From the sequence record KM092515: a stretch of 64,000 nucleotides of DNA, one strand, 5' to 3'. This stretch comes from Escherichia phage HY02. The notes under the pieces were generated by a model, which ran no database searches, was not told where the DNA came from, and saw nothing but the letters and a program-made list of their open reading frames with translations. Of this stretch, positions 3,682 to 56,927 are shown one piece after another. Within the stretch, counting starts at the first letter, position 1, and every line of letters starts with the position of its first letter. The position numbers and the translations under genes are program-made.

Positions 3682-4230
3682 ATGAAGAAATTGATTCTAG
3701 GTTTGTGCTTAATGTTTACAGCACACTTATCTTATGCAGTTGACTGCCCAGAGCTATCAATTAGCCAAAAAGTGAACATGTTAAAAGCTTACCAGTATGG
3801 TGAGAATAACATGGGTAAAGGTTGGGGTATCACTCTAGCAGCTATAGCCTTACAAGAGTCAGAGTTAGGTCTGAAGGTAGAAAATAAAAAGACCCATGAC
3901 TACGGTATCTTCCAGAATCACTTGAAGACTGTTGTAAAGCGTAACAAAATTAGTCCTAATGTTGCTAAAAAGAAACTCTTAAAAGATTTTGACTATGCCG
4001 CAAAAGAAACACATAAAGAGCTTGAGTTTTGGACGAAGGTACATGGTCACCCAAAGTCAAAGAAGACTTTACAAAAAGTTTTAGCATCATATAATGCTGG
4101 GTATTCGTACAGAATCCCTAAAGCTAAGAAATACTCTCAAGATGTCTATAACAATATGAAAGTTATTGCTCAATGTGAATTTGCAACAAACATTTCTAAG
4201 GTAAACCATGAAAAAATTAAGAAAGTCTGA
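3682..4230 (+). CDS. secreted lytic transglycosylase (SLT domain)
   Basis: N-terminal signal peptide MKKLILGLCLMFTAHLSYA; SLT-like motifs QESELG (catalytic Glu-Ser), DYGIFQ and YNAGYSY. Confidence 0.55.
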   Translation: MKKLILGLCLMFTAHLSYAVDCPELSISQKVNMLKAYQYGENNMGKGWGITLAAIALQESELGLKVENKKTHDYGIFQNHLKTVVKRNKISPNVAKKKLLKDFDYAAKETHKELEFWTKVHGHPKSKKTLQKVLASYNAGYSYRIPKAKKYSQDVYNNMKVIAQCEFATNISKVNHEKIKKV

Positions 4231-5779: not shown

Positions 5780-5942
5780 GAGTGATAAGTACACTCAAGA
5801 AGAATCACGGTATATCATCAAAGGCAACACAGGCAGTGATGTAGCAGCAGCACTTGAGTTCTACCGTGACGGCTTTTACCAGTGTACAATTAAAGCTAAT
5901 AACCTTATTGACATGATTTTATTAGGGAATAAGCAGCAATGA
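5673..5942 (+). CDS. putative lipoprotein, o-spanin-like
   Basis: signal peptide with lipobox IIMSGC; starts inside 5432..5779 in a different frame. Confidence 0.4.
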   Translation: MKKLSQSFIMFVLLIIMSGCSTNKVSSTFKNSQVSESDKYTQEESRYIIKGNTGSDVAAALEFYRDGFYQCTIKANNLIDMILLGNKQQ

Positions 5943-6208
5943 CAGAGAATCAAGACACTTTCTATGTAGAAGGTTACTTACTGTTACCACGACCAAAAGA
6001 AACTTATATGCGAATTGACTTCTTGCCAACCATTATGGATAATGTGATGTGTCATATCTTTATGCAAGGTGTCACAGCACAGCTTAAGCATGTTGGTAAA
6101 GAGTGCAAAATAAAGGTTGACACTCATCCAGAAATCAAAGAGAATCACTACACATGGTTCTTACCAGATTCTAAAGAAATCTTAGCAGTTCTTAAAACGA
6201 GGAAATGA
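5939..6208 (+). CDS. hypothetical protein
   Basis: 89-aa ORF, start overlaps upstream stop. Confidence 0.45.
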   Translation: MTENQDTFYVEGYLLLPRPKETYMRIDFLPTIMDNVMCHIFMQGVTAQLKHVGKECKIKVDTHPEIKENHYTWFLPDSKEILAVLKTRK

Positions 6209-23759: not shown

Positions 23760-25175
23760 ATGAGCGAGTTATTTAAACATGCGCACCTTCATGCAGGTCG
23801 AACTGAAAATGGTGCTGTAAACCATACTTCATCAATGTCTGCTCTGGTAGACTTCTACAAAGCCGCTGGTTCAAGCCGTAGCAATGTAGAAATCTTACCA
23901 GACCTGTTCTACAAAGCTTTGCGTGAGGATGTTGATGTTGCAGTTCGTATTTTACTGCATATGCGAGATGTACGAGAAGGTATGGGCGAGCGTAAAGCTT
24001 TCCGAACTGTTTTACTTCAAGCGATTGAAGATAAAGTTTTAGAACCTACACAGGTTCTTCGCATTATGGATAAGATTGTAGAACTTGGTCGTTTTGATGA
24101 CTTCAAAATCTTCGTAGGTACTCGTTTCGAGACAGATGCCTTCAAACATTTAGAAGCAGCATTACTAGACCCTGCAACAGCAGGTTTAGCAGCTAAGTGG
24201 TTACCACGAGTAAAACCACGCCACAAACAGTTTGTAAAACGTTTCTGCAAGTTTGCAAACTTAAGCGAGAAAGAGTACCGCACACTGTTATCTGCACTAT
24301 CTGATACAGTTGAACAAAAAATCTCTGCTAATGAGTTTGGTAAGATTGACTACAGTAAGATTCCTTCACTTGCTGCTGCACGTTACCAAAAGCTCTTTAA
24401 CCGCAAAGATGGAGAACGCTACAAAGCTTACATCGAGTCCTTATCAAAGGGTGAGGCTAAGATTAACGCTGGTGCTGTTTACCCATACGATGTGATTAAA
24501 TCTATTAAGTATGGTAATGCAGATGTTGCTAATGAGCAGTGGAAAGCACTTCCAAACTGGATGGCAGAAGGTGAAAACATCTTGTGTATGACTGATGTTT
24601 CAAGCTCAATGTCTTGGGTGAATCTTGGTTCAATCACTGCTCTGGATATTGGTGTATCACTTGCCTTGTATGTAGCAGAACGTAATACAGGTTGCTTTAA
24701 AGATGAGTTAATGGTTTATTCAACAAACCCTCATTTCATTGAACTGAGTGGTGATTTACGAAACCGTCATCGTCAGGTAATGCGTCATGTTGAATATGGT
24801 TCAACTAACTTACAAGCAGCTTTTGACCGTATTCTTGAGGTAGGCAAGAGAAACAACTTGACTCAGAAAGATATGCCAAGTAAGCTTATTATCTTCTCTG
24901 ATATGGAGTTTAATCAGGTTGATGGTGCAAATGGTCGTACAAACTTTGAAGCAATTCAGAGTAAGTACAAAAAAGCTGGATACGAAATGCCACAACTGGT
25001 ATTCTGGTACTTAGCAAACCGTAATGGTACTTGCGAAGTATCCGTTAAGGATAACGGTGTAGCAATGGTATCAGGGTTCTCTCCAGCAACTTTAAAAGCT
25101 CTGCTTGGTGGTGAGAAGTTTGACCCAATCAGCGTAATGCTTAAAGCAGTAATGATTGACCGTTATATCTGGTAA
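23760..25175 (+). CDS. rsr: Ro60/TROVE-like protein with C-terminal vWA domain (Rsr-like)
   Basis: vWA MIDAS motif DVSSSM (Ro60 has DVSASM); YPYDVIKSIKYG resembles Ro60 HPFHILIALETYK; FSDMEF resembles Ro60 FTDNET; C-terminal GFSPATLKAL resembles Ro60 GFDTGALDVI (from recalled Ro60 sequence, not a search). Confidence 0.65.
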   Translation: MSELFKHAHLHAGRTENGAVNHTSSMSALVDFYKAAGSSRSNVEILPDLFYKALREDVDVAVRILLHMRDVREGMGERKAFRTVLLQAIEDKVLEPTQVLRIMDKIVELGRFDDFKIFVGTRFETDAFKHLEAALLDPATAGLAAKWLPRVKPRHKQFVKRFCKFANLSEKEYRTLLSALSDTVEQKISANEFGKIDYSKIPSLAAARYQKLFNRKDGERYKAYIESLSKGEAKINAGAVYPYDVIKSIKYGNADVANEQWKALPNWMAEGENILCMTDVSSSMSWVNLGSITALDIGVSLALYVAERNTGCFKDELMVYSTNPHFIELSGDLRNRHRQVMRHVEYGSTNLQAAFDRILEVGKRNNLTQKDMPSKLIIFSDMEFNQVDGANGRTNFEAIQSKYKKAGYEMPQLVFWYLANRNGTCEVSVKDNGVAMVSGFSPATLKALLGGEKFDPISVMLKAVMIDRYIW

Positions 25176-25193
25176 AAAGTTTTAAAAAGGGTA

Positions 25194-25222
25194 TTGACAA
25201 TGTGTTTGATACCCTTTAATAT
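25194..25222 (+). promoter_or_regulatory. sigma70-like promoter upstream of the tRNA cluster
   Basis: TTGACA, 17-bp spacer, TAATAT; overlaps an inverted repeat AAGGGTAT...ATACCCTT. Confidence 0.5.
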
Positions 25223-25284
25223 GTTCTACATAGAAACGAAATGAGAGCTTTCCTAAGATACTGAAAAATATTTTAAAAAAGTTC

Positions 25285-25313
25285 TTGACAACCACTAAAA
25301 AATAATGTTAAAG
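25285..25313 (+). promoter_or_regulatory. sigma70-like promoter upstream of the tRNA cluster
   Basis: TTGACA, 17-bp spacer, TTAAAG. Confidence 0.4.
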
Positions 25314-25340
25314 TGGTTACATAGAGTTTGAAAAGTTTAT

Positions 25341-25417
25341 CTCTGTTTAGCTCAGCTTGGTAGAGCGTTCCGTTTGGGGCGGTAAGGCCGGAGGTTCAAG
25401 TCCTCCAACAGAGACCA
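25341..25417 (+). tRNA. tRNA-Pro (UGG)
   Basis: acceptor CTCTGTT/AACAGAG, T-arm GGAGG-TTCAAGT-CCTCC, encoded CCA; anticodon loop TTTGGGG. Confidence 0.55.
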
Positions 25418-25424
25418 AATTAAT

Positions 25425-25502
25425 GTTCCAGTAGACAAAATGGTATAGTCACCACTCTTTCAAAGTGGATATTTGAGGGTTCAAATCCATTCTGGAACGC
25501 CA
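25425..25502 (+). tRNA. tRNA-Glu (UUC)
   Basis: acceptor GTTCCAG/CTGGAAC, anticodon arm CCACT-CTTTCAA-AGTGG, TTCAAAT T-loop with imperfect T-stem. Confidence 0.5.
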
Positions 25503-25509
25503 GTTTTGA

Positions 25510-25582
25510 CAGAAGACCAATTACAGCAAACTTAATCTTATTCATCTGAAGGTAAATCGGACAAAGAAGAGATTTGGTCTGG
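25510..25582 (+). ncRNA. Y-RNA-like element 1 (stem-closed, no tRNA-like domain)
   Basis: 5' CAGAAGACC-AATT...ACAGCAAA and 3' ATTT-GGTCTGG can pair as a terminal stem. Confidence 0.4.
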
Positions 25583-25593
25583 TCATTAAGAAT

Positions 25594-25670
25594 TGCGGGT
25601 ATAGAGAAAGGGCGTCTCACATGTCTCATTAGCATGGTATCGGCAGGTTCGACTCCTGCACCCGCCTCCA
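25594..25670 (+). tRNA. tRNA with CAU anticodon (Met or Ile2), atypical D region
   Basis: T-arm GCAGG-TTCGACT-CCTGC, acceptor TGCGGGT/ACCCGCC with 1-72 mismatch, anticodon arm CATGT-CTCATTA-GCATG, encoded CCA. Confidence 0.4.
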
Positions 25671-25676
25671 ATTTTG

Positions 25677-25736
25677 CAGAAGACCGTATTCAGCAATAAA
25701 CTACTTTTTGCGGATAAAAGAAAAAACACGGTCTGG
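25677..25736 (+). ncRNA. Y-RNA-like element 2
   Basis: 5' CAGAAGACC-GTAT...TCAGCAA and 3' ACAC-GGTCTGG; stem bases co-vary relative to element 1. Confidence 0.4.
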
Positions 25737-25747
25737 CAACGTATTAA

Positions 25748-25821
25748 GGTTAGGAAGCACATGAGGTATGTGCGGTCGCCTGTTAAGCGAATGGCACAGG
25801 GTTCGAATCCCTGACTAACCG
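25748..25821 (+). tRNA. tRNA-Asn (GUU)
   Basis: acceptor GGTTAGG/ACTAACC, D-arm GCAC..GTGC, anticodon loop CTGTTAA, T-arm CAGGG-TTCGAAT-CCCTG. Confidence 0.6.
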
Positions 25822-25832
25822 CAAATTTAAAT

Positions 25833-25920
25833 GTGTCGTTATCCCGTAGATGGTAGCGGTGGGGACTGTAAATCCCTTGTCATTGAGACTCGGTAGGTTC
25901 GACTCCTACACGGCACACCA
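25833..25920 (+). tRNA. tRNA-Tyr (GUA), long variable arm
   Basis: acceptor GTGTCGT/ACGGCAC, anticodon arm GGGGA-CTGTAAA-TCCCT, T-arm GTAGG-TTCGACT-CCTAC, encoded CCA. Confidence 0.6.
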
Positions 25921-25981
25921 ATTTTGAGAGGGCTATTTAGCCCCTCCCTTAAAGGGTTCTTACGAGTATCCTTTAAAGGAG

Positions 25982-26054
25982 CAGAAGACCAAATACAGCA
26001 AGTTATTTAAAATTTCAAGCCAATTCAATTTTGAAAATTTAAAACTTGGTCTGG
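25982..26054 (+). ncRNA. Y-RNA-like element 3 (YrlB-like, no tRNA-like domain)
   Basis: 5' CAGAAGACC-AAAT...ACAGCAAG and 3' CTT-GGTCTGG; interior holds an AT-rich palindrome. Confidence 0.4.
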
Positions 26055-26067
26055 CTCAACAAATTTA

Positions 26068-26199
26068 CAGAAGACCGTTTACAGCAAAACTTAAACAATC
26101 TATTTCTCCGGTAAAGAAAAGGCGAAGGTTCGATTCCTTCACTCGGCAGATGTCGAGTTGGTGTAATGGTAGCACTTAAGATGATAAACAACGGTCTGG
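26068..26199 (+). ncRNA. Y-RNA-like element 4 (YrlA-like) with permuted tRNA-like domain
   Basis: terminal stem AGACCGTT/AACGGTCT; internally T-arm GAAGG-TTCGATT-CCTTC (26124-26140), acceptor-like helix ACTCGGC/GTCGAGT capped by AGAT (26141-26158), D-arm GTGT-AATGGTA-GCAC (26161-26175); T-arm precedes D-arm. Confidence 0.55.
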
Positions 26200-26204
26200 T
26201 AATT

Positions 26205-26339
26205 ATCTTTGTAGATAAGTTATTAAGCTTACCTGTGAGTATGCGACCACAAAGGTGAAAGGGTAAATTCTAGATTTAAACCCAAAAAGACACATCGCTA
26301 CAGACCTTAAGCAAGTCTGGGTAGCTTATCTACAAAGAT
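26205..26339 (+). repeat. structured element closed by a perfect 15-bp inverted repeat
   Basis: ATCTTTGTAGATAAG (26205-26219) and CTTATCTACAAAGAT (26325-26339) flank about 105 nt containing hairpin CAGAC-CTTAAGCAA-GTCTG. Confidence 0.5.
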
Positions 26340-26347
26340 AATTTAAT

Positions 26348-26423
26348 GGAAGTGTAGCAGAATGGTGATGCGGCAGACTTTTAATCTGACAGGCGATGGG
26401 TTCGAATCCCTCCACTTCTACCA
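26348..26423 (+). tRNA. tRNA-Lys (UUU)
   Basis: acceptor GGAAGTG/CACTTCT, anticodon stem CAGA/TCTG with loop CTTTTAA, encoded CCA; T-stem has two mismatches shared with the CUU paralogue. Confidence 0.5.
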
Positions 26424-26427
26424 ATAT

Positions 26428-26504
26428 GGTTCAGTCGCAGATAAGGTAATGCAAGGGTCTCATAAGCCCTATGAATGTGGGTTCGATTCCCATCTGAACC
26501 TCCA
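26428..26504 (+). tRNA. tRNA-Met (CAU)
   Basis: acceptor GGTTCAG/CTGAACC, anticodon arm AGGGT-CTCATAA-GCCCT, T-arm GTGGG-TTCGATT-CCCAT, encoded CCA. Confidence 0.65.
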
Positions 26505-26505
26505 A

Positions 26506-26581
26506 GCTGGTATAGTTAAGAAGGTTATAACACTCCCCTGATAAGGGAACATCGGTGGTTCGATTCCACCTACCAGTACCA
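26506..26581 (+). tRNA. tRNA-Ile (GAU)
   Basis: acceptor GCTGGTA/TACCAGT, D-arm GTTA..TAAC, anticodon loop CTGATAA, T-arm GGTGG-TTCGATT-CCACC, encoded CCA. Confidence 0.65.
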
Positions 26582-26596
26582 ATTTCAATAAAGTTG

Positions 26597-26625
26597 TTGA
26601 CATTGAGATGTGACTACTTTATAGT
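26597..26625 (+). promoter_or_regulatory. internal sigma70-like promoter within the tRNA cluster
   Basis: TTGACA, 17-bp spacer, TATAGT. Confidence 0.5.
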
Positions 26626-26828
26626 AACCTTAGTTTTCGTTGCGTAGCGTCTATTTTGCAAATTTAAAATAAATGCAAACGACAATGTTTTTCTGGCAGT
26701 AGCTTGATAGGCTAAACACCAGTGAGGTCTTCCAATCCCTCATCAAAGAATTTGGCGTACTCGCCCACGGTATGATTAATAAGGTGGGCATCTTTAAGGG
26801 CTTTCTAAGAGAGTCTTTAAAGATTAAT

Positions 26829-56567: not shown

Positions 56568-56927
56568 TTATGGGAACAGACACTTGATGTCATCATTTTT
56601 GAAAACGAAACTTGTGTAGTTGTGACCGTCAACATCCAACCAAACAGCCTGAACATCCACACCATCAAGATTGTGGTAAAGTTCTTTGATGAAGTGGTCT
56701 TTCACAATCTGGCTGCTAGTTGTTTCCAGCTTAATATTTGAGATTGCTGAACCTACAGCCATATAACCCATGACACGTTTCTTCTCAGTATGCTTAATCT
56801 TACCATCTTTGTAAGCCATAATGAGATTGGAGAGAATCTTTACACCATAATACTTTTCAAGGTGAGTAGGTGCACCATAAAAGCCTAATGCGAAGTTTTC
56901 AGAGTGGATAATGTTTTCACGTTTCAT
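56568..56927 (-). CDS. hypothetical protein
   Basis: 119-aa ORF. Confidence 0.5.
   Translation of the reverse strand: MKRENIIHSENFALGFYGAPTHLEKYYGVKILSNLIMAYKDGKIKHTEKKRVMGYMAVGSAISNIKLETTSSQIVKDHFIKELYHNLDGVDVQAVWLDVDGHNYTSFVFKNDDIKCLFP

Follow-up and report, generated by a model that had tools for sequence, protein, structure and literature searches.

The DNA analysed here is a stretch of 64,000 nucleotides (the window, 64 kb) from Escherichia phage HY02 (KM092515), a Felix-O1-like myovirus, and our subject is a set of three short elements, E1, E2 and E3, which are candidates for Y-RNA-like small RNAs encoded beside a phage protein with a predicted Ro60-like fold. The gene of this protein (23760..25175, + strand; 471 aa) carries the Pfam domains DUF2828 and DUF7788 (vWA). 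A tRNA array of 25 genes, also on the + strand, starts 165 nt 3' of this open reading frame (ORF). Near its start lie E1 (25508..25584), E2 (25675..25738) and E3 (25980..26056), each 64–77 nt long, on the strand of the DUF2828 gene and 342–900 nt 3' of it. They are followed by E4 (26066..26201, +), a tRNA-like (YrlA-like) sibling with the same closing module. ARAGORN places tRNA-Glu (25425-25502, +) and tRNA-Met (25594-25670, +) on the two sides of E1, the latter between E1 and E2, and tRNA-Asn (25748-25822, +) 3' of E2; the spacers between the lower stems of E1 and E2 and the adjoining tRNA ends are only 4–9 nt. Two sigma-70-like promoter matches (25194-25222 and 25285-25314, +), which are consensus matches only, precede the array, and 3' of 25314 the + strand has no further match of this kind before 26597.

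The region 25150-26700 shares 98% identity with Escherichia phage humlepung and with many other Felixounavirus records, and at least 80% of it is covered in 237 phage records. In some Salmonella Felixounaviruses (H26, PV659053; H33, OR863361) its counterpart contains an inserted HNH endonuclease gene together with several small ORFs. These interruptions, and an E2–E3 distance that ranges from ~250 to ~790 nt among relatives, indicate that the array is an insertion hot spot, yet E1–E3 are kept. The tRNA-Asp that follows tRNA-Tyr in humlepung, SUSP2 and Sf14 (L001 3278-3353 in our set of loci) is absent from the window (25918-25921, +); its loss corresponds to a clean 84-nt deletion between similar tRNA 3' ends (...CACCAAT / ...GCCAAT).

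All four elements are built on a common module, in which a 7-bp helix with an invariant G-C second pair is followed by three bases and a single-stranded CAGCAA, and the 3' strand ends in C-W-G. The original prediction, made from the letters of the window, described three elements with a shared 5' AGAAGACCNNNNNCAGCAA and a shared 3' GGTCTGG, and its coordinates are correct. AGAAGACCNNNNNCAGCAA occurs exactly four times in the window (25511, 25678, 25983 and, in E4, 26069), always on the + strand, and GGTCTGG lies 3' of every copy (25576, 25730, 26048 and 26193). With two mismatches allowed there are 6 matches, where chance would give 0.70 and where none of 100 shuffles gave more than 3. The helix reads AGACCAA/UUGGUCU or AGACCGU/ACGGUCU, with an A-rich 3' strand. 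The flanking bases had been described as mostly compensatory; this is true of two pairs (AA/UU in E1 and E3, GU/AC in E2 and E4), while the next two bases are unpaired. A 3-bp lower stem that had escaped the prediction covaries among the four copies (GAC/GUC, UGC/GCA, AGC/GCU and UAC/GUA) and is parted from the 7-bp helix by an AGA/G internal loop.

The three short elements follow this plan base by base. E1 opens with the lower stem GAC (25508-25510) paired to GUC (25582-25584) and an internal loop of AGA (25511-25513) opposite G 25581; its 7-bp helix (25514-25520 / 25574-25580) leads into single-stranded U-U-A-CAGCAA (25521-25529) and an interior hairpin UCUGA-AGGUAAA-UCGGA. The lower stem of E2 is UGC (25675-25677) with GCA (25736-25738), AGA (25678-25680) faces G 25735, and the helix (25681-25687 / 25728-25734) is followed by A-U-U-CAGCAA (25688-25696) and the hairpin CUUUU-UGCGGAU-AAAAG. 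For E3 the corresponding parts are AGC (25980-25982) with GCU (26054-26056), AGA (25983-25985) opposite G 26053, the helix at 25986-25992 / 26046-26052 and A-U-A-CAGCAA (25993-26001); its interior is an A/U-rich hairpin with the sequence-conserved loop GCCAAUUYAAUU. The interiors, predicted to be 45–60 nt, measure 44, 31 and 44 nt after CAGCAA.

The interior of E4 is of another kind, with a 7-nt-loop hairpin, a T arm, a loop-closed acceptor-like stem and a D arm in that order, which is the permuted tRNA-like layout of YrlA; a partial Rfam tRNA match (22 bits) covers 26091-26141. E1–E3 themselves were considered as tRNAs and rejected, as D arm, T arm, acceptor stem and anticodon loop are all absent and neither ARAGORN nor Rfam RF00005 calls a tRNA at 25508-25584, 25675-25738 or 25980-26056. 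A scan of E1–E3 with Rfam 15 matched no family at the gathering score or at E<=10, and gave only sub-threshold chance matches (Dicty_Class_I_RNA, at 24.4 and 19.7 bits, where the gathering score is 41.5). They were also rejected as intrinsic terminators: the terminator scan found no + strand site inside any of the three, and the 3' strand is followed by G and variable sequence with no U tract. An antisense search of the E1–E3 loops against the 64-kb window found no targets.

Two neighbouring segments deserve a description of their own. Between E4 and tRNA-Lys, 148 nt (26200-26347, +) fold into a 24-bp closing stem with three internal hairpins (minimum free energy -46 kcal/mol, z -7.1; 0/200 shuffles equally stable), one of which, CAGAC-CUUAAGCAA-GUCUG, resembles a collapsed version of the CAGCAA-stem module. 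A nearly identical segment is present in 14 Felixounavirus loci, which with the window makes 15 sources; blastn detected no counterpart in Suspvirus or Mooglevirus, and Rfam gave no match. A further non-coding RNA is one possibility, a substrate of RNase III another. Just 5' of E3, 57 nt (25924-25979, +) are near-invariant across Felixounavirus, Suspvirus and Mooglevirus and could form two hairpins, GAGGGCU..AGCCCCUC and AAAGGG..UCCUUU, the latter changed in a compensatory manner at one pair, which is G-C in the window and A-U in the other three. The segment could be part of an extended E3 transcript.

Conservation in close relatives was examined in 24 Ounavirinae sources (Felixounavirus, Suspvirus and Mooglevirus) whose DUF2828 protein is 85–100% identical to that of the window. 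The prediction had hinged on conservation of the stem in relatives, and the stem is kept in all 24; E1, E2 and E3 are present in every source in the same order, at +341–344, +502–509 and +814–1350 nt from the end of the gene, respectively. The ends of the copies are conserved, and the interiors have diverged or been replaced, to the point that the E1 interior exists in two unrelated versions. Among E2 orthologues the lower stem alternates between UGC/GCA and UAC/GUA, and one-sided changes in the 7-bp helix give G.U wobbles (AGGCCAA/UUGGUCU and AGACUGU/ACGGUCU). The E3 loop is near-invariant across the three genera, and the acceptor-like stem of E4 covaries among them. RNAalifold on the orthologues of E1, E2 and E3 supports the closing stems alone; the interior hairpins are A/U-rich and align poorly.

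For distant relatives we surveyed 80 viral contigs encoding homologues of the 471-aa protein, 66 of which are divergent loci (560 kb) with protein identities of 36–80%, nearly all 40–46%. A first, loose descriptor (a stem of at least 7 bp near CAGCA, G.U allowed) returned 505 plus-strand, 383 minus-strand and ~185 shuffled matches, and because of this high background it was replaced by a fixed geometry: a G at -8, seven pairs from -9 to -3 with at most one G.U, three bases, CAGCAA, 12–180 nt, and then the 3' strand with a G after it. On the 64-kb window this strict descriptor finds exactly four elements, E1–E4, all just 3' of the gene, with both strands searched. In the 66 divergent loci all of its 83 matches fall on the gene strand, with 0 on the reverse, and a dinucleotide shuffle gives 0–2 (mean 0.4). 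Fifty of the loci have at least one match, and 73 of the 83 matches lie within 1 kb of the DUF2828 gene. No tRNA call overlaps any of the 83 elements, and 27 of the 50 copy-bearing loci have no tRNA gene within the locus, so that the module is linked to the protein gene and not to tRNA arrays.

The 107 unique elements of the family comprise 75 short (<=80 nt) and 32 long ones. A T-loop motif is found in 23 of the long elements and in none of the short ones, in keeping with the original view that E1–E3 lack a tRNA-like domain. Many distant lineages, the L037-L062 group among them, have a short copy and no other, and other phages carry 3–8 tandem copies with differing interiors (LAh_6, PBC2 and KP13-16). 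Klebsiella phage KP13-16, whose protein is 51% identical, has at least five elements directly 3' of its DUF2828 gene, two short and three tRNA-like, with helices GAAGAU, GAAGAA, GAAGCU, GUAGU and GAAGGU beside a constant (A/U)CAGCAA.

Some interiors in these loci stand apart. One subclass has a conserved 33-nt interior, CCUUUCYGGAGGGGAAAGCAAAAACUCGCCAAA (L033 3276-3370, L034 3133-3232, L035 2102-2196, L038 3707-3805 and L063 3734-3828). Because it is common to otherwise divergent contigs, it is a putative third kind of effector module beside mini-hairpins and tRNA mimics. KP13-16 (L005 ~5941-6060) also holds a non-permuted tRNA-like sequence with an acceptor end bearing CCA and with D and T arms, in which the hairpin ACUUC-uuaga-GAAGU and then UUUACAGCA occupy the position of the anticodon arm, a circular permutation of the YrlA-like layout. 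In Bacillus phage PBC2 one copy (L093 1269-1391) apparently encloses a near-complete tRNA-Ile-like sequence in the same orientation; the surrounding tRNAs are annotated on the opposite strand in that record.

Covariation within the family argues for a helix maintained as RNA. The 107 unique elements have 53 distinct helix sequences with pairing kept; pairs -3, -4, -5, -6, -7 and -9 each occur as four or five pair types, and the second pair is always G-C. Several features that the descriptor did not impose are conserved as well, namely U at -1 (105/107 elements), A or U at -10, where C does not occur, and a 3' strand rich in A immediately ahead of the helix. When 37 short elements are aligned, two-sided changes are seen at six of the seven pairs, and the covariation score comes to 1.017; column shuffles give 0.235 (0/500 reach the observed value), and sliding the 3' partner by 1–3 columns gives 0.10–0.21. 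Extension of the helix in a fixed register beyond 7 bp was considered and rejected: positions -1/-2 and -10 to -15 pair no more often than in shuffles. Lower stems do exist in the family, in a variable register.

The original prediction had proposed a covariance model as a check, and this check was run. The model, R1, was built from the 37 short elements, with E1 (45.1 bits, E 3e-9), E2 (46.5 bits) and E3 (41.4 bits) among its seeds, and it finds the stem beside DUF2828 genes in near and distant relatives. In 65 divergent viral loci it gives 69 matches at E<=0.01, all on the gene strand, ~39 of them non-seed. The out-of-sample matches beside a DUF2828 gene include Listeria phage LMTA-34 (E 6e-9 and 4e-7), Staphylococcus phage S-CoN_Ph11 (1e-6, 2e-6 and 4e-5), Campylobacter phage CP81 (2e-6 and 3e-3), Enterococcus phage Bill (5e-6), Bacillus phage PBC2 (7e-6) and Mycobacterium phage Rumpelstiltskin (1e-4 and 3e-4). 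No minus-strand match was found in the out-of-sample phage loci at E<=1. In 80 loci from bacterial assemblies that encode relatives of the protein, mostly contigs of metagenome-assembled genomes, there are 48 matches at E<=0.01, again all on the gene strand and all but a few within ~700 nt of the gene. Across three independent locus sets the total is ~200 matches, every one on the gene strand. Within the window, R1 also gives a weak match (24 bits, E 1e-3) at 56706-56764 (-), UGGCUG..UUCAGCAA..CAGCCAG, with 2 extra spacer bases and inside a 119-aa ORF (56568-56927, -); this may be a chance match or a fifth, intragenic copy.

The protein encoded upstream offers a candidate partner for such RNAs. 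PHROG assigns the 471-aa protein to phrog_850, 'RNA-binding protein', and its mycobacteriophage homologues are labelled 'Ro-like RNA binding protein' by SEA-PHAGES; the protein is encoded in 708 phage records. An AlphaFold2 model from a 41-sequence alignment has a predicted local distance difference test score of 84.6 and a predicted template modelling score of 0.85. In a Foldseek comparison with the PDB, the best 12 matches are all Ro60/TROVE proteins (E 6e-8 to 6e-6, TM 0.49–0.63, full length), among them the Ro60 of Thermus phage phiLo (9KOP, the best match), Xenopus Ro60 (2I91 and 1YVR) and Deinococcus radiodurans Rsr (2NVO); isolated vWA domains rank next. The homologue gp130 of phage Bas63 has been described as Ro60-like in structure and as countering the ppl defence system (preprint PMC11482910). 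The same work speculated that some Bas63 'tRNA genes' are Y RNAs and identified none; to judge from its genus membership, Bas63 presumably carries E1–E4.

Taken together, these results argue, with a probability that we put at roughly 70%, that E1–E3 are Y-RNA-like small structured non-coding RNAs derived from the tRNA-array transcript and bound by the Ro60-fold DUF2828/vWA protein encoded upstream. The suggestion that the elements are YrlB-type partners of such a protein is supported by their tight linkage to a protein with a predicted Ro60 fold, with the caveats that the canonical motif is absent and that the protein is non-TROVE by sequence. More generally, CAGCAA-stem RNAs probably serve as the RNA partner of the Ro60-shaped phage protein, an association to which genomic linkage points.

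A mechanism can be proposed along these lines. E1–E3 would be transcribed together with the tRNA array. As the spacers to the tRNA ends are 4–9 nt, RNase P cleavage and tRNA 3'-end processing, as in established tRNA maturation, would release E1 and E2, and the lower stem would protect the ends of the released RNAs. The fixed geometry suggests a single protein-docking module. It would consist of the 7-bp helix with its G-C second pair, the base of the helix being flanked by A/U (5') and G (3'), and of a 5' strand that would present N-U-N-CAGCAA in single-stranded form opposite the A-rich 3' strand; the module may be written as the 7-bp helix plus UNCAGCAA, with a helix base of W.G, W-W, G-C, R-Y. 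The DUF2828/vWA protein, whose gene lies just upstream, would recognise the RNA at this site. The variable interior, a mini-hairpin in E1–E3 and a tRNA mimic in E4, would be the effector part, through which the resulting ribonucleoproteins (RNPs) would come to differ in their partners or in gating, in the manner of Y RNAs with Ro60. Their function would be RNA surveillance or counter-defence, and by analogy with known systems (PMC4201824, PMC12135203) the options include ring gating, tethering to PNPase or tRNA-handling enzymes, and decoys against host defences.

A further group of copies bears on recognition of the module. In ~15 divergent loci a copy abuts or encloses the ribosome-binding site of the DUF2828 gene itself. 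A copy ending in ...CUG stands directly before the Shine-Dalgarno sequence in L007 (2907-2958), L033 (~3951-3990), L035, L039 (3947-3989), L040, L050, L063 and L078; KVP40-like vibriophages have a minimal copy within which lie the Shine-Dalgarno sequence as well as the AUG (L006 2961-3010, Vibrio phage ValKK3; L030; L031). These operator-like copies suggest translational autoregulation by the DUF2828 protein. Their layout is the usual one for autogenous control by an RNA-binding protein, and they support direct recognition of the module by the DUF2828 protein.

Several observations weigh against our assignment of E1–E3. Their folding energies are unremarkable and close to those of shuffled sequences (z = -0.8, -2.6 and -1.5); as these single-sequence scores are too weak, the case for structure rests on comparative data. 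Their interiors show scant clean covariation. The 100% pairing of the helix is circular, as seven pairs were required at collection; for this reason the independent support is that of the strand, shuffle and location statistics and of the out-of-sample matches of the covariance model. Sixteen of the 66 divergent loci have no strict match. No sequence similarity of the protein to Ro60/TROVE was found with phmmer and profile searches against the PDB, or with Pfam at E<=10. Finally, GNCGAA, the motif of known bacterial Y RNAs, is absent from the four window copies, as read by eye in these four among the copies of the family.

Three other explanations were weighed. The elements could be cis-acting parts of a polycistronic transcript, either as punctuation for the processing or stability of the tRNA array or as operators for the DUF2828 protein or a host RNase. 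The distance of E1 and E2 from the tRNA ends (4–9 nt) fits such a role, as do the operator-like copies at ribosome-binding sites in other phages and the lack, in consensus and terminator scans, of a promoter or terminator belonging to any single element. We nevertheless regard it as unlikely. Punctuation of tRNAs does not account for the 27 of 50 copy-bearing divergent loci with no tRNA nearby and is hard to fit with 3–8 tandem copies of differing interior, and where the module closes a tRNA-like interior, the architecture mirrors that of YrlA, which is a free Y RNA. Moreover, a cis-acting role still implies recognition by the same protein and hence overlaps with our assignment.

That E1–E3 are decayed, non-functional duplicates of E4 or of tRNA genes, with the interior lost, is highly improbable. 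An origin by duplication is clear from the near-identical ends of all four copies, and phage tRNA arrays turn over fast, as the loss of tRNA-Asp here illustrates. However, decay is at odds with the position of E1, E2 and E3, each at the same place in 24 of 24 sources from three genera, with helices maintained through compensatory and wobble changes, with the near-invariant E3 loop, and with the short copies that are the sole copy in many distant lineages and make up 75 of the 107 unique elements. The least credible explanation is that the elements are repeats at the level of DNA, such as hot spots of recombination or insertion, targets of homing endonucleases or palindromes bound by a protein. 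In DNA the stems do form inverted repeats, and HNH endonuclease genes and a variable tRNA content occur in the region among relatives, but the strand specificity is complete, with 0 minus-strand matches in four independent sets, the asymmetric CAGCAA is always on the 5' arm of the transcribed strand, G.U wobbles would be A-C mismatches on the other strand, and helix sequence varies freely (53 versions) while pairing is kept, all of which bears out the original claim of a selected RNA helix.

With the Y-RNA-like reading of E1–E3 preferred, a wider one can be put forward more tentatively, at a little under even odds in our judgement. DUF2828/vWA Ro60-fold proteins and CAGCAA-stem RNAs could constitute a distinct and ancient RNP system with three RNA formats: tRNA mimics, mini-hairpins such as E1–E3, and an operator copy placed at the ribosome-binding site of the DUF2828 gene itself. 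It would extend over phages of Proteobacteria, Firmicutes, Actinobacteria and Campylobacter, including the Felix O1-like, KVP40-like and P100-like groups and cluster L mycobacteriophages, and in Felixounaviruses the RNP would be the effector by which gp130-type proteins defeat ppl. Ro60–Y RNA particles are a classic RNA-quality-control system whose role in bacteria and phages is poorly understood. One searchable RNA module now ties hundreds of phage proteins annotated as 'hypothetical' or 'vWFA' to specific candidate RNA partners, accounts for conserved spacers of tRNA arrays that annotation ignores or overwrites with spurious ORFs, and gives a testable hypothesis for the anti-ppl activity reported for the Bas63 homologue.

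Comparison with known Y RNAs places the elements more precisely. The YrlA and YrlB RNAs of Salmonella, Mycobacterium and others (Chen et al. 2013, 2014; PMC4201824) likewise lie on the strand, and within ~1 kb, of a gene for a ring-shaped protein with the Ro60 fold, which in our case is a predicted fold. As in those RNAs, the 5' and 3' ends pair into a closing stem (here a 7-bp helix and a 3-bp lower stem, both covarying), a conserved purine-rich motif of the 5' strand adjoins the stem, and there are several copies per genome. One paralogue, E4, has the permuted tRNA-like domain of YrlA (V hairpin, T arm, closed acceptor, D arm), and the others, E1–E3, are short hairpins without a tRNA-like domain, like YrlB. 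The motif is different: N-U-N-CAGCAA, at a fixed 3 nt from the 7-bp helix and shared by E1–E4 and by 107 of 107 unique family members, takes the place of GNCGAAN0-1G, the presumed Ro60 contact. The partner is also different, as DUF2828/DUF7788 has no TROVE similarity detectable by HMMER, and the elements are embedded in a phage tRNA array. The 2014 survey of Chen et al. searched only TROVE-annotated genomes, and Felixounavirus-type phages therefore fell outside it. We found no description of CAGCAA-stem RNAs in the literature, in a search that was incomplete, so an earlier description is possible.

The nearest phage counterpart is Thermus phage phiLo, whose Yrl1 and Yrl2 RNAs stand beside phiRo60 (PMC12135203; PDB 9KOP and 9L5Y). 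There, too, a phage encodes at least two Y-like RNAs next to a Ro60-fold protein, and 9KOP is the best structural match of our modelled protein. The phiLo RNAs differ in having a CGAA motif in a bulge, and phiRo60 is a recognisable TROVE protein. RNA binding and a ternary complex with PNPase were demonstrated experimentally for phiLo (PMC12135203); the counterpart here is known from sequence and a structural model. With metazoan Y RNAs (Rfam RF00019) the elements have in common a terminal stem that serves, or here would serve, as protein-docking site and a variable loop for other functions, but there is no Rfam match even at E<=10, and the bulged GGUCCGA helix, transcription by RNA polymerase III and, at sequence level, the protein family of the metazoan RNAs are different. 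The tRNA genes and pseudogenes of phage arrays offer another likeness, as the elements are found among tRNAs, in the same orientation and with a similar length, and E4 mimics tRNA arms; E1–E3, in contrast, have no D or T arm, acceptor stem or anticodon loop. In architecture and genomic logic, then, the CAGCAA-stem RNAs are like bacterial Y RNAs, but they are a separate family, and E1–E3 are not filed as YrlB because GNCGAAN0-1G/CGAA is absent and the protein is non-TROVE by sequence. As a natural series of mini, tRNA-like and operator-like RNAs, they provide material for studying how a Ro60-fold ring recognizes RNA without the canonical motif.

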